Made by a program: the position numbers. 64,000 nucleotides of DNA from Escherichia coli. Lineage in GTDB: Bacteria > Pseudomonadota > Gammaproteobacteria > Enterobacterales > Enterobacteriaceae. Position 1 is the first letter of the stretch. Every line of letters begins with the position of its first letter. The stretch lies in assembly GCF_030013595.1 (NCBI RefSeq), contig NZ_CP122768.1; one strand, written 5' to 3'. Below, piece after piece: positions 27,001 to 34,723 of the stretch.

Positions 27001-30000
27001 ATTCACTTTTTCTCCCGCATACTTCACATCTGTCAACGACGGATGAAAAGTGGTTCTTCCGCAACCTGGGTGGAAGAAAATGGATGAAACTTTCTGGCGA
27101 ACAAGGATCTAAGCTGTTTTAAGTTATGGGCAACGCAATGCACTCTCTTAAGACACTTCTACAGTTACCTTGCGGATGGCGATGCAGTCGACAAATTATT
27201 AGCTCTGACGGTATAACCCTCCATCTCCACGGAAAACGCAAAACAGCACAATGTCCTGAATGCTTTAAGCGTAGCGACTCTGTTCATAGTTGTCGTCGGC
27301 GCCGGATACAGCATCTACCCTGCTCAGGGCAGACGCTATGGCTTGTATTTTCCGTCCGCCACTGGTACTGCCGTAACCCGGCTTGTTCACGTAAAATTTT
27401 TGCCGAGTCGCTTGCTCCCTTCGCCAGTTCACACCAGCAGTCTTCACAGGCGTTACAAAATTAACAACGTCAACTGGGATTAATAGCTGGAGGTGAGGCT
27501 GGAAAACGGGCTGCAACGGCAGTGGGTCTCCGTTGCAGTGCTGATACTCTTCTTCGCAGGCTTATCAATACCCCGGAGACGAAACAGTCAGGCGCGCCTC
27601 ATGTCGGTATTGATGAGTGGGCGTGGCATCGGGGCCACTGCTGCGGTATGTTAATAGTCAATCCTGATACTCACCGTCCCCTCGTCCTGCTTCCCGGCCG
27701 TGATCAGCGTACGCTGGCGACCTGGTTCAGAAAATATCCGGAAATACAGGTTGTCTCGCGTGATCGCAGTGGAGTCTATGCGACAGCAGCACGTGAAGGT
27801 GCACCTCAGGCCAGACAGGTGGCCGATCGATGGCACCTGCTAAAAAATATTGGTGATGAGCCTGAACGAATGATGTACAGATATATGCCTCTGATACGTC
27901 TTGTTGTCAGAGAGTTATCACTGAAGAAATCACCTGAGCCAGAAATATCTGTGCCTGTAGCATCGCTCCGTCGTCTGGAACGCCTTAAACAGCACATCCG
28001 CAAAAAACGGCATCAGCGTTGGACAGAGGTTATGGCCCTGCATAACAAGGGATGTAGTTTCAGGGAAATATCCCGTATTACAGGCCTGTCGCGAGTGACA
28101 GTCAGTCGCTGGGTGGGTTCAGGAACATTCCCTGAAATGTCAACTAGGCCTCCAAAGCGAGGGCTTCTGGACCCATGGAGGGAGTGGTTAAAAGAGCAAC
28201 GAGAATGTGGTAATTATAACTCCGGCCGGATATGGCGGGAAATGGTGGCCAGGGGGGTTACAGGCAGTGAAACCATCGTCAGGGATGCTGTTGCCAAATG
28301 GCATAAAGGCTGGATCCCACCGGTTACTACTGCCGCAAGACTTCCTTCAGTGTCCCGGGTAAGCCGCTGGTTGATGCCCTGGAGAATAATCAGGGGTGAA
28401 GAAAATTATGCTTTCCGATTTATTAGTCTGATGTGTGAAAAAGAACCGGAGTTGAAAATAGCGCAGCAACTGGTACTCGAGTTCTACCGTATTCTGAAAA
28501 CCTAAAATAAATCACAGCTAAGCAGCTGGTTCACTCGGGTCCACGAAAGCGGCTCAGCAGAACTTCGGTGCGTAGCTGCGGGGATGGAAGCTGATGCTGC
28601 GGCTATATGTGAGGCAATCAGCAGTCGCTGGAGTACTGGTGTTGTCGAAGGTCATGTAAATCGCCTGAAGGTGCTGATACGCCAGATGTATGGTCGAGCC
28701 GGACTTGAACTACTTAGGCGGAGGGTAATGAGTCCACTGGCATGAAAATCTTCACCTAGGTTGAGGAAGAGCCACTTTTGCACTGTTCGTGACAGTATGG
28801 CCTTTATGTACTCACTTTGTTACCGGTAGCTGGATCATCACTACCGTGCCGCAAATGGTGGTGAACAGCATCAATTGTGGAATGAATGTTGCCGAAGCGA
28901 CCAATGCGCCTCGTTTCCACCATCAGTGGTTGCCGGACGAGCTGCGTGTTGAAAAGGGTTTAGTCCGGATACGCTCAAGCTGCTGGAAGCAAAAGGTCAG
29001 AAAGTGGCGCTGAATGAGGCGATGGGCAGCACGCAAAGCATTATGGTTGGGTCGGATGGTGAGTTGTACGGCGCATCCGACTCGCGCTTGGTGGATGATT
29101 TAACGGCGGGGTATTAATTGACATCCCCCGGCGCAATGTGCCGGGGGATAATGGTTTTATGCGGTCAATAATCGTCCGGGATTATCGATACAGAGTTTTT
29201 TGAGGATCGTTTTATCGACGCCGCGCTCCGCCAGATAGGCCAGAAAAACATCTGGAACAAATCCCCAGCCATTACCGCCATTTTTAGCCCACATTTGTTT
29301 AAGGAAGACATCGTGGCTGAGAACAAGCTGATCGGCGTATCCCAACTCAATGAGATGAGCGACGGCATCGGCAGTCTCCTGCACCCCTGGCGCTATTCCC
29401 TCTTTCGGGAAGGTAATGTCTAGGCCAATCATGTCGAATTCCAGCCAGACACCTTTATCAAGCATTTTCCGCTGATACGCCACGTCTTTTCCTGACGGAT
29501 CCGAGTGTGCGAGAGAGACTTTATTTGGCGAGACGCCCATTTCACCTAACACAATGTCGAGTACTTCATCACCGCGACGAAGCCAGCCCGGCATGTGAAT
29601 ATTCATCGCCACATGAGGATTGTTAATCTGTGCCAGCGAGGCAGCCCGCAAGCTGTTATGCTCGGCTTCGGTAAATGTCGGTGAGACACCTATTTCACCG
29701 ATCATTCCGGCACGAATATCCGTATCGCCAATCCCTTGATTCAATTCTTTATCGATCGTTGTCGCTAGTTCATCAACCGTTTTATGAATTCTCTGGCTTT
29801 CAAATTTTTCCAGGTAGGGACCGGAGGAAGCAACAATATTCAGACCTGTTTTTAATGCGACTTCTCGTAATGCCTGCGCATCTCGTCCGATAGACTCAGA
29901 CCCTGTGGCATCAACAATGGTGCGACCACCGAGCGAGATAAAGTTATTAATTTCGAAGATCACATCTTCAATAGGTTTGCGGTCCATATTATCAGCGCAG

Positions 30001-33000: not shown

Positions 33001-34723
33001 GGCCGACAGCAGGCTCAGAAGACGCTCCAGTGTGGCCAGAGTGCGTTCACCGAAAACGTGCGCCACAACTGTCCTCCGTATCCTGTCATACGCGTAAAAC
33101 AGCCAGCGCTGACGTGATTTAGCACCGACGTAGCCCCACTGTTCGTCCATTTCCGCGCAGACGATGACGTCACTGCCCGGCTGTATGCGCGAGGTTACCG
33201 ACTGCGGCCTGAGTTTTTTAAATGGCGGAAAATCGTGTTGAGGCCAACGCCCATAATGCGGGCGGTTGCCCGGCATCCGACGCCATTCATGGCCATATCA
33301 ATGATTTTCTGGTGCGTACCGGGTTGAGAAGCGGTGTAAGTGAACTGCAGTTGCCATGTTTTACGGCAGTGAGAGCAGAGATAGCGCTGATGTCCGGCAG
33401 TGCTTTTGCCGTTACGCACCACCCCGTCAGTAGCTGAACAGGAGGGACAGCTGATAGAAACAGAAGCCACTGGAGCACCTCAAAAACACCATCATACACT
33501 AAATCAGTAAGTTGGCAGCATCACCCTACTTTTGTTATGAAATAAACATCAGTATCGGCAAAGCTTGCTGCCAGCGCCTGGTTACAACCTTTTCCCCCCG
33601 GTGAAAATATAAAATTACTTGCCAGAAGCGATTCTCCGATAGTGGGAAGCCTCGGCAAATAACTGATGATATCAACATTAAACGAACCAATAACGCATAC
33701 TTGACTTTTCATAGTTGAGTGGCCTTTTTTTATTCCCTAGGCTGTATCATAATTTTCAAGCGCATAAGCGATTTCATTTTTCGCAATAGTATCAAGCGAG
33801 TCTAGGACGATAAAAGCACCGCCATGATATCGAGTCAGATAGCCAAGTCTGGCAAGTTCATTAAGATCTGATCGAATAGTTTCTTTCGTTACATTGAGGC
33901 TATTGGACAGATCGGATACTTTTACAGAACCGAATTTACTGAGTCGTTTCAATATTTCATGATGGCGTTCAAATTTCATGCTTCACCTCACTTCAGTTAC
34001 GTTAATATCTGTCGATGTATATTGATGTGATAATCACCATAAAGTGGCGGGGAAAAGCAAAAAAAATCAAAAATAGCCGGAGAAAAGGTAAGCGTTAATG
34101 GAGAATCATATTGATGCTTATTTATTGGTGAGAACTACGTTCCATGGCAGGAGTTCATCAATACGGTTGGAAGGTTATTCCGGCAGTACGCTCAGGATAT
34201 GGCGCAGATACTCTTCCGGATCAATGTCGTTCAGAAGGCAAGTGCCGATAAGCCCATACAACAGTGCACTGCGCTCGCCGTCGAAGAACATAAAGTTTTT
34301 ATTTCCGAGACAGATGGCACAAAGGGCTTTTTCCGCGGCATTATGTCTGCCTCCGCCTGACCGTCAACACTGTAATAACAGAGTGCGCCCCACTGATTCA
34401 GTACACAGCTGAACCATTCTCCCAGTCTGGATTTTTGGACAGCGTGGCATTTTTCTCCACCATCCACGCATGCAGTGAGTCCAGTAACAGTTTGCTCTTC
34501 CTCTGCCTGACCACAAGATGTTCTGGTTCTGGCATACTGAATTTGGCCACCTGAGCATAGGTAATATGCTCACCTTAGAACAACACAGATGCTCCAATGA
34601 AAAAAGGAAATTTCAGCGCAGAGTTTAAACGCGAATCCACTCAACTAGTTGTTAACCAGAACTTTACGGTGGCAGGTACCATCCAAAGCTATGGATGTCG
34701 GTCTTTCCACAATGACAAGATAA

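Follow-up and report, generated by a model that had tools for sequence, protein, structure and literature searches.

An Escherichia coli orthologue of the Salmonella rikA operon with a doubly damaged kinase gene, and its possible role in the salvage of ribose conjugates

Introduction

Each of the four proteins encoded by a gene cluster that occurs widely among gut and soil bacteria has already been the subject of experiments or of a structure determination. Which compound they act on, and how the kinase gene of the cluster came to be broken, are the questions raised by a stretch of 64,000 nucleotides from Escherichia coli (RefSeq assembly GCF_030013595.1, contig NZ_CP122768.1; the whole stretch is called the window in the following). 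At positions 29157-33979 of the window, calling of open reading frames (ORFs) gives five co-directional minus-strand units with a spacing or overlap of 2-57 nt. A first-pass annotation of the sequence had placed a tightly spaced, co-directional group of ORFs here, and its coordinates and strand all match. Its view that this is an accessory, operon-like cluster outside the standard K-12 gene set also stands, K-12 being without the cluster. The five ORFs that it counted as five genes are indeed present, but the helix-turn-helix (HTH) and kinase ORFs are parts of one gene, which leaves a four-gene operon. This operon, which the annotation did not recognise, is the E. coli orthologue of the Salmonella rikA-STM3548-STM3549-STM3550 operon (STM3547-STM3550), a mobile four-gene cassette whose kinase has been published as RikA.

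As a whole, the account given below (an orthologous rikA operon with a doubly damaged rikA gene, which would serve the salvage of ribose conjugates) is in our judgement very probably the best explanation of the locus; the salvage pathway, taken singly, is put forward more tentatively. The cluster and the kinase are already in the literature, breakage by a common insertion sequence (IS) is ordinary, and similar breaks are frequent in the species. New here are the census of genes associated with the PF07090 family and the conserved T-rich motif and CRP-like site upstream of rikA.

Identity of the cluster

In Salmonella, rikA is followed by genes for a "glutamine amidotransferase" (STM3548), a DMT transporter (STM3549) and a phosphotriesterase (STM3550), and this set of four genes is shared by Citrobacter, Escherichia, Budvicia and Proteus (PMC13432705). 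Homology searches with the window proteins, as proposed in the first-pass annotation, mark them as orthologues of this STM3547-STM3550 set, the closest known system. The cluster of Salmonella LT2 has the same genes, order, spacing and Pfam families (HTH_DeoR plus PfkB, GATase1_like, DMT_YdcZ and phosphotriesterase, PTE) with proteins that are 80-88% identical, and the nucleotide identity amounts to 76% over the whole 4046 nt. In the window itself, Pfam assigns PF07090 to the 252-residue protein and two DMT_YdcZ repeats to the transporter. The gene order rikA, PF07090, DMT_YdcZ, PTE on one strand is shared with Salmonella, Budvicia and 20 further loci. The LT2 cluster also has the same T-rich motif, CRP-like site and Shine-Dalgarno sequence, and a 404-codon rikA with Met90 and Asp343. 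It differs in its location between a yhhY-like gene and ggt, whereas the E. coli copy resides in a CP4-44-type island with merely a 3' relic of ggt, and the window allele departs from it by Gln81>TAG, Cys51Tyr, Asp202Gly and an IS1 insertion.

The first-pass annotation had named two findings that would speak against it, namely that the cluster is a known, characterised operon and that the gene pieces are unrelated. The former applies in part: the kinase is characterised and two further components have structures. The latter does not apply, since removal of the IS1 rebuilds a single kinase frame.

The rikA gene and its double damage

The regulator had been described as a DeoR protein consisting of the HTH domain only. 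The HTH and kinase ORFs lie in one frame, however, with a TAG and eight codons between them, and without the IS1 rikA comprises 404 codons in which HTH_DeoR is fused to a PfkB ribokinase, collinear with the full-length proteins of Salmonella and E. coli. The HTH-only ORF exists because of a CAG>TAG nonsense mutation at codon 81. IS1-free versions, which the first-pass annotation had suggested looking for, do occur in other genomes: the reconstructed rikA of the window is base-for-base equal to an IS1-free allele of other E. coli, and PGAP annotates this allele as a single 1215-nt pseudogene ("ribokinase RikA, internal stop"). Protein searches recovered full-length 404-residue E. coli RikA proteins with Gln81 (a cluster of 2277 member sequences) as well as HTH_DeoR-PfkB fusions of 397-412 residues across Enterobacterales; the 404-residue form is found in most E. 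coli and in Salmonella, Citrobacter, Budvicia, Proteus and Providencia. Among the fetched E. coli loci, codon 81 is CAG in L005 and in L004 (strain Combat11I9), the latter with an intact 404-codon rikA, and TAG in the window and in L001, L002 and L003. With a 61-nt probe centred on this codon, Gln81>TAG was matched exactly by 219 of 1967 E. coli records (11% of carriers), the remaining 1748 showing at least one mismatch; all 25 mismatch rows that were sampled have exactly one. Compared with the majority protein, the window protein has two more changes, Cys51Tyr and Asp202Gly, and it is 80-82% identical to Salmonella RikA homologues over 404 residues.

RikA joins an HTH to a kinase and so departs from the canonical regulators of the DeoR family. 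PF08220 (HTH_DeoR) is recorded in full-length homologues, the N-terminal AgaR model of NCBIfam matches residues 3-61, and in place of a DeoR_C sugar-phosphate-binding domain the C-terminal part is the PfkB kinase. A canonical DeoR regulator cut by a deletion was considered and rejected, because the kinase continues in frame after the HTH. In eight species pairs, dN/dS of the HTH region is 0.03-0.2, reflecting purifying selection as strong as on the kinase domain, which argues that the HTH is translated and functional in nature.

In the strain at hand rikA is damaged twice, by the older Gln81>TAG of its lineage and by a strain-specific IS1 that destroys the kinase, and the three downstream genes are intact (Table 1). 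The element has all the hallmarks of IS1, namely a length of 768 bp, imperfect terminal inverted repeats of ~23 bp in their canonical form (GGTGATGCTGCCAACTTACTGAT...), insA and insB, and a 9-bp target duplication (CTACTTTTG). It sits in codons 149-152 (T-K-V-G) of rikA, so that no kinase is made in this strain. The copy is the only IS1 in the window and is 98.8% identical to the IS1 of another E. coli locus (L002) and 94.5% to IS1E of K-12. Its exact junction, searched as a single-piece match to a 120-nt probe, is absent from 5426 complete E. coli genomes, in line with the earlier description of a kinase gene cleanly split by a complete and recent IS1; eight seeming full-coverage matches turned out to be IS1 insertions elsewhere in rikA. 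As IS1 insertions are classically polar, the three downstream genes are probably transcribed less from the rikA promoter.

A serious contender, although we lean against it, is that the TAG allele represented a working two-gene arrangement before the IS1 arrived, with a free 80-residue HTH protein and a kinase started at Met90, so that the locus was inactivated only once. The product made from native signals in Salmonella indeed starts at Met90, without the HTH, and RikA 90-404 sustains growth on ribose (PMC13432705). Residue 90 is Met only in the Escherichia-Salmonella-Citrobacter-Klebsiella-Budvicia branch, where a conserved purine-rich AAAAAAGG / AAAGAGG precedes it by 10-12 nt. In addition, the TAG allele is carried by 219 records, and the three downstream genes are intact in L001 and L003. 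Yet the fused frame prevails in every other genus as well as in 89% of E. coli carriers. Position 90 is GTG in Providencia, GCA in Proteus and AAA in the Salmonella paralogue located beside the ttr genes (STM1381 cluster); lacking a start codon there, Proteus and the ttr-side paralogue must make their kinase as a fusion. Moreover, an HTH without its partner domain may fail to dimerise or to respond to a ligand, and the locus shows other signs of decay. We prefer the reading of a fused gene damaged twice. The 80-residue HTH peptide of this strain might retain a function or have lost it.

Table 1. Features of the rikA locus in the window.
Feature	Position	Strand	Remarks
T-rich motif TTTTGATTTTTTTTGCTTT	34054..34072	-	~75-95 nt upstream of the rikA ATG; candidate operator/promoter element
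CRP-like site TGTGA-TAATCA-CCATA (+ strand reading)	34026..34041		8/10 matches to TGTGA-N6-TCACA
rikA codons 1-81 (DeoR-type HTH and linker)	33737..33979	-	stops at TAG 33739-33737; CAG (Gln81) in most E. coli
HTH ORF	33979-33737	-	80 residues
rikA kinase domain, N-terminal fragment	33535..33712	-	from Met90 (ATG 33712-33710) to the IS1 target site
N-terminal PfkB fragment as ORF	33712-33521	-	63 residues
Target-site duplication, copy 2 (CTACTTTTG)	33526..33534		identical to copy 1
Complete IS1, 768 bp	32758..33525	-	insA/insB on the rikA strand
Target-site duplication, copy 1 (CTACTTTTG)	32749..32757		rikA codons 149-152
rikA kinase domain, C-terminal fragment	31988..32748	-	holds catalytic Asp343 in GAGDAFNG
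C-terminal PfkB fragment as ORF	32713-31988	-	241 residues
PF07090 GATase1_like/ThuA-like protein, STM3548 orthologue	31216..31974	-	252 residues; intact
Membrane transporter, two DMT_YdcZ (PF04657) repeats, STM3549 orthologue	30194..31159	-	321 residues; intact, Trp203 kept
Phosphotriesterase-family amidohydrolase, STM3550/Pmi1525 orthologue	29157..30191	-	344 residues; intact
G+C-rich terminator-like hairpin	29123..29149		between the convergent PTE gene and ggt relic
Gamma-glutamyltransferase (ggt) 3'-end relic, 294 bp	28824..29117	+	transcribed towards the PTE gene; left boundary of the transferred block

Ribose as a substrate of RikA

STM3547 of Salmonella LT2, which was named RikA, is a PfkB ribokinase in vitro (McCormick, Jabbar & Escalante-Semerena, Mol Microbiol 2026; PMC13432705), and rikA from the chromosome alone sustains growth of Salmonella on ribose. 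That paper gives Asp343 as critical or essential, deoxyribose, xylose and xylulose as poor substrates, and arabinose as none. The solved structure closest to the RikA kinase domain is that of E. coli RbsK (E 1e-52). Residues N14, D16, G41, G42, K43 and N46 of RbsK and its catalytic Asp align with N101, D103, G128, G129, K130, N133 and D343 of RikA, all of which are invariant in 14 homologues. The roles of the RbsK residues in contacting ribose are assumed here as given in the structural literature on RbsK. With ribose-binding and catalytic residues like those of RbsK (1RKD family) from the rbsDACBKR operon, RikA would form ribose-5-phosphate as its product. Unlike the rbs system, RikA carries an N-terminal DeoR-type HTH, and its cluster is devoid of an ATP-binding cassette (ABC) transporter and of RbsD, while encoding a hydrolase and a PF07090 enzyme instead. 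Hence, ribose would be released from a precursor rather than imported in free form. Furthermore, the operon led by a RikA paralogue of 60% identity also encodes a nucleoside hydrolase and a NupC-type transporter, and the PfkB protein encoded beside PF07090 in Neobacillus passes the NCBI ribokinase equivalog cut-off. Together, these comparisons favour free ribose as the real substrate of RikA.

The authors of the RikA paper suggested otherwise. In that case, which we regard as rather unlikely but worth keeping in mind, the cassette would degrade a specific non-ribose sugar derivative, with this compound or an intermediate as the true substrate of RikA and ribose as an off-target. For ribose, kcat and kcat/Km are about ten-fold below those of RbsK, and moonlighting was raised by the authors, who suspect a side activity (PMC13432705). 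The kinase domain scores 285.4 bits against a cut-off of 299.65 for the ribokinase equivalog TIGR02152, a near miss that accounts for the separate name RikA used by PGAP. Distant HTH-PfkB homologues also head differing operons, for example in Pectobacterium with a DHDPS-family enzyme, DUF386 and a transporter of the major facilitator superfamily (MFS). What tips the balance towards ribose is that all ribose contacts of RbsK are invariant in RikA, that the other pentoses listed above are used poorly or not at all, that chromosomal rikA by itself allows growth on ribose, and that binding proteins of the ribose type, a bona fide ribokinase or a nucleoside hydrolase turn up in related clusters. 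The natural substrate is given as unknown in the RikA paper (PMC13432705), just as the substrate was in the first-pass annotation.

The 60% paralogue itself is encoded on a Salmonella enterica contig (L009, 8001-14123) together with an inosine-uridine nucleoside hydrolase, NupC-type and MFS transporters and an M20 amidohydrolase. Genes for ccdAB, a resolvase and an integrase flank this operon, which is apparently located on a mobile element.

The PF07090 protein, the transporter and the hydrolase

The 252-residue protein matches PDB 2GK3 (STM3548) with E 1e-145 and is 83% identical to a Salmonella protein; between E. coli and Paenibacillus, the identity is still ~60%. Its earlier description as GATase1-like holds for family (PF07090, GATase1_like) and fold, but the Cys nucleophile that class I glutamine amidotransferases carry in a G-x-C-x-G elbow behind the fourth strand, partnered by His and Glu, is absent. 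For this reason a function as a real glutamine amidotransferase was rejected, the fold being nearer to that of ThuA-like proteins.

The product of the last gene aligns over its full length of 344 residues (E 3e-174) with its orthologue Pmi1525 from Proteus mirabilis (PDB 3RHG, 4QSF), a PTE-family esterase of the amidohydrolase superfamily, and Proteus carries the same cluster. Identity is ~74% to the Proteus protein and 86-88% to the Salmonella and Citrobacter orthologues (86-87% for Salmonella). Membership in PF02126 is borne out by the motifs PHEH, GEIG, NIHMPG, AHSD and SHDVF, which are identical in Pmi1525, and by matches to many PTE structures; as elsewhere in the superfamily, these motifs would provide the metal ligands, namely H-x-H and the later His, His and Asp. 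The hydrolase falls outside every functionally named PTE subfamily tested with NCBIfam equivalogs. Thus, organophosphate hydrolase OPH (82.5 bits for a cut-off of 500), E. coli Php (108.4 for 486) and phospho-furanose lactonase (42.4 for 630) were all rejected. PDB 9EFA, a 'phosphotriesterase-related protein', is matched with E 8e-37, ahead of bacterial parathion hydrolases. The eukaryotic PTER, an N-acetyltaurine/N-acetyl-beta-alanine amidohydrolase, belongs to the same PTE-related subfamily, so that this branch can hydrolyse small N-acyl amides, although PTER is distant and acts in another biological setting. Xiang et al. reportedly assayed Pmi1525 on artificial esters, including a methylphosphonate ester (Biochemistry, 2015). 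Its metal-stimulated esterase activity is confirmed in a citing paper. A literature search for STM3548, STM3549, STM3550, PF07090, DUF1355, COG5426, STM1381, orf408 and PMI1522-1524 yielded nothing functional beyond the RikA paper.

It could be argued from the PTE family of the hydrolase, from the cleavage of esters by Pmi1525 and from the Pfam label of YdcZ as a putative exporter that the cluster is a device for the detoxification and export of organophosphonate or ester xenobiotics, with the DMT protein as exporter. This is very improbable. The hydrolase attains 82 of the 500 bits required for organophosphate hydrolases, and related clusters replace it by an M20 carbamoylase/deacylase or a proline-iminopeptidase-type enzyme. 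The transporter position in related clusters is taken by binding-protein-dependent importers, and the sugar kinase, the LacI or HTH regulators of sugar type and the CRP-like site all indicate catabolism.

Gene neighbourhoods of PF07090

To place the cassette among its relatives, gene neighbourhoods were compared at 80 loci from one genome per species, 78 of which hold a PF07090 gene; genes on the same strand within a span of ~7 kb were counted. The underlying scan comprised 184 tblastn-confirmed PF07090 matches, and ORFs were classified by phmmer against reference proteins of families known from precomputed Pfam matches. Nearly every PF07090 gene (77/78) is accompanied by a transporter of the DMT, ribose-type ABC, amino-acid permease or NupC type. 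A hydrolase is found at 73 of the 78 loci, being a PTE protein in 31 cases, an M20 enzyme (carbamoylase or ArgE/DapE deacylase) in 43 and an alpha/beta hydrolase of proline-iminopeptidase type in three. PfkB kinases occur at 52/78 and all three partners at 50/78. The ABC systems are importers, as binding proteins are present. By NCBIfam, the M20 enzymes are hydantoinase/carbamoylase-family amidases or ArgE/DapE deacylases and the alpha/beta hydrolase belongs to the proline-iminopeptidase family, while one Firmicute PfkB protein is a bona fide ribokinase and the binding protein is RbsB-like. The recurrent arrangements are listed in Table 2.

Table 2. Arrangements of PF07090 clusters.
Group	Gene content
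Enterobacterales	HTH-PfkB, PF07090, DMT, PTE
Succinivibrionaceae	PF07090, DMT, PTE, PfkB (permuted set)
Salmonella and Citrobacter, beside ttr genes	HTH-PfkB, PF07090, alpha/beta hydrolase, amino-acid permease
Bacillaceae	LacI, PfkB, PF07090, M20, RbsBAC-like, BtpA, PfkB, M20; or a version with a PTE homologue
Paenibacillus	RbsA, RbsC, RbsC, RbsB, small ureidoglycolate-lyase-like protein, M20, PF07090

Judging from this conservation, the four genes of the Enterobacterales cassette are one functional unit: they recur in the same order in ~20 species of seven genera and in unrelated chromosomal contexts. Although the cluster is set in a mosaic of IS fragments and pseudogenes, this recurrence, together with the permuted set in Succinivibrionaceae, already refutes the notion that five ORFs without a common function came to lie side by side in an IS-rich island.

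The paralogous ttr-side cluster of Salmonella and Citrobacter (STM1381, PDB 3SOZ) likewise encodes an HTH-PfkB protein (408 residues), a PF07090 protein, a hydrolase and a transporter and has an upstream CRP-like site. It differs from the rikA cluster in that the hydrolase is an alpha/beta hydrolase of the proline-iminopeptidase family and the transporter an amino-acid permease, in the missing start at position 90 and in another upstream repeat. This cluster was seen at L011 5763-10055, where a good CRP-like site (TGTGA-N6-TCACC) lies upstream, and also at L044, L050 and L057.

In the Firmicute LacI-PfkB-PF07090-M20/PTE-RbsBAC-like clusters (Bacillaceae, Paenibacillus, Brevibacillus), the PF07090 proteins are 59-68% identical to that of E. 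coli and are encoded beside a ribokinase-type PfkB and an amidohydrolase-type enzyme. A PTE homologue with 36-42% identity to the E. coli hydrolase is present in eight species. These clusters differ by a separate LacI regulator and a binding-protein-dependent ABC transporter, and they add a BtpA/SgcQ family member, a second PfkB and a ureidoglycolate-lyase-like protein.

Two further genes were observed in these neighbourhoods. A conserved protein of ~169 residues (L096 6102-6611; about 20 Paenibacillus and Cohnella loci) is encoded between the ABC genes and the M20 carbamoylase-type gene and has weak, sub-threshold matches to ureidoglycolate lyase. In Klebsiella spallanzanii (L026 2539-3552, minus strand), the opposite strand holds a second, divergent PTE-family gene (24% identity) at a distance of ~5 kb upstream from the rikA cluster.

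Promoter region

Upstream of rikA, the T-rich motif TTTTGNTTTTTTTTGNTTT (34054-34072) is unique in the window, with 0 occurrences expected by chance. In the fetched loci, the exact motif is found upstream of rikA in Escherichia, Salmonella, Citrobacter, Klebsiella, Budvicia and Providencia, the last with two copies, and exact matches in orthologous loci are confined to this position. Proteus has one mismatch, and a related version precedes the 60% paralogue on L009. The motif is followed by the CRP-like site, which has similar counterparts at the same position in orthologues and paralogues, and then by a conserved ribosome-binding site (GTGAGGTGA). The consensus for CRP binding is TGTGA-N6-TCACA. 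The T-rich repeats bear some resemblance to the AgaR operator. We read this region as a catabolite-controlled promoter with a candidate RikA operator. Neither a riboswitch nor any other known RNA was matched in Rfam at E <= 0.1, be it in the leader or elsewhere in 27000-36500. Hits to promoter and terminator consensus sequences were no richer than in shuffled sequence (12 versus 10.3 and 7 versus 4.2), so that they serve only as pointers.

A possible salvage pathway for ribose conjugates

The hydrolases that replace each other in these clusters cleave amide, carbamoyl or ester bonds, and they are combined with importers of ribose- or amino-acid-like molecules and with a ribokinase, from which we infer a salvage of ribose conjugates. 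Conceivably, the cassette acts on a molecule made up of ribose and an amine, ureide or acyl group bound to it. Its expression would be driven by a CRP-dependent promoter and probably repressed by the HTH of RikA bound to the conserved T-rich motif. The DMT protein would import the ribose conjugate, the PTE-type hydrolase and the PF07090 enzyme could then free D-ribose, and RikA would phosphorylate ribose to ribose-5-phosphate, a step that would be dead in the present strain. This sequence of uptake, hydrolytic ribose release and phosphorylation by RikA is a tentative proposal, to which we give slightly less than even credence.

A number of points weigh against it. Within the span examined, 26 of the 78 PF07090 neighbourhoods are without PfkB. 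In vitro, ribose is a comparatively poor substrate of a kinase that narrowly fails the ribokinase cut-off, and the product seen in the laboratory in Salmonella starts at Met90, without the HTH. YdcZ proteins carry the label of putative exporters in Pfam. The known activities of Pmi1525 concern artificial esters only and so do not reveal its natural substrate, and both the catabolite control and the operator are read from sequence. As to the polarity of the IS1, a promoter-like site at 31202-31174 (10/12 matches) before the transporter gene could express the last two genes independently, and BioCyc predicts two operons in the Salmonella cluster, as cited in PMC13432705.

A more far-reaching version, which we consider improbable, is that the combination of PF07090, an amidohydrolase-type enzyme, a ribokinase-type PfkB and an importer stands for an undescribed salvage of N-ribosyl amides or ureides, with PF07090 as a new kind of hydrolase and RikA as a regulator-kinase of two forms. 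If true, such a pathway would be spread over Enterobacterales, Succinivibrionaceae and Bacillales. It might serve, for instance, ring-opened or modified nucleosides from RNA turnover in the gut, such as a dihydrouridine-derived ureidopropionate riboside. The two forms would be the full-length HTH-kinase, acting on the T-rich operator, and a kinase-only product from Met90.

For the salvage proposal in general, the comparative data limit the candidates to compounds in which an amine, ureide or acyl group is attached to ribose. E. coli strains with Gln81 in rikA, Trp203 in the transporter and no IS in the cluster provide concrete test strains. Together with the census and the regulatory motif, the catalogue of natural alleles, both intact and broken, is a practical point of departure for the substrate question.

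Distribution, probable acquisition and decay in E. coli

Among 5426 complete E. coli genomes, 1905 (35%) have at least 80% of the cluster, and ~870 more hold fragments of it. All fetched E. coli loci have the same flanks, with ggt' and ISL3' on one side and IS66' on the other. Five out of six share the chromosomal place inside a CP4-44-type island beside cobUST and tRNA-Asn; in the sixth, AVS0756, the far side is rearranged. From the CP4-44 island of K-12 MG1655, ~16 kb corresponding to 19245-35284 of the window are missing, and the flanking sequences are joined directly there. The Salmonella and Citrobacter clusters are situated between ggt, with which they are convergent, and a gene for a yhhY-like acetyltransferase; this slot holds unrelated genes in K-12. 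The ggt relic of the window mirrors this layout, being convergent with the cluster, and is 92.5% identical to ggt of K-12 and 84% to that of Salmonella, which suggests a donor closer to Escherichia than to Salmonella. This foreign relic, the low G+C content of the cluster (43.9% versus 48.6% for the window) and the ISL3 and IS66 remnants on both sides indicate that the cluster was acquired, as the first-pass annotation had held, and the presence in only about a third of the genomes agrees with it.

The window IS1 is an ordinary case of repeated inactivation at a locus that is decaying in E. coli. The transporter gene has a common nonsense allele of its own, Trp203>TAG, which is found in 600 of 2038 E. 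coli records, independently of rikA Gln81>TAG, for example in Combat11I9 (L004 8439-8441) and likewise in L006. Independent IS1 copies interrupt the PF07090 gene in L002 (~11555-12323, cluster nt 1649-1658) and rikA in L005 (~3156-3925, nt 350-358) and L006 (~3422-4190, nt 84-93), and IS30, IS3, IS2 and IS150 do so in other strains. In a spread sample, six of 27 full-length rows are interrupted, and truncations occur as well. Such frequent independent inactivation suggests that the substrate is rarely met in current E. coli niches.

Several observations concern the surroundings of the cluster. Besides the rikA cluster, the block at 19245-35284 contains an ISL3 pseudogene, inovirus-Gp2-family and zinc-ribbon genes and IS66 fragments. 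The cluster is bounded by an ISL3-family transposase pseudogene with an internal stop (27126-28745, plus strand) and, on its other side, by IS66-family and other transposase fragments (34175-35288), both conserved in the E. coli loci examined. At 10247-13603, between the regions matching the yeeS side and the yeeR/flu side, lies a segment without counterpart in the K-12 CP4-44 island. A plug fragment of a TonB-dependent receptor (35442-36002, minus strand; yoeA-like) is contiguous in the window, whereas the K-12 pseudogene is split by IS2F, with IS5H nearby.

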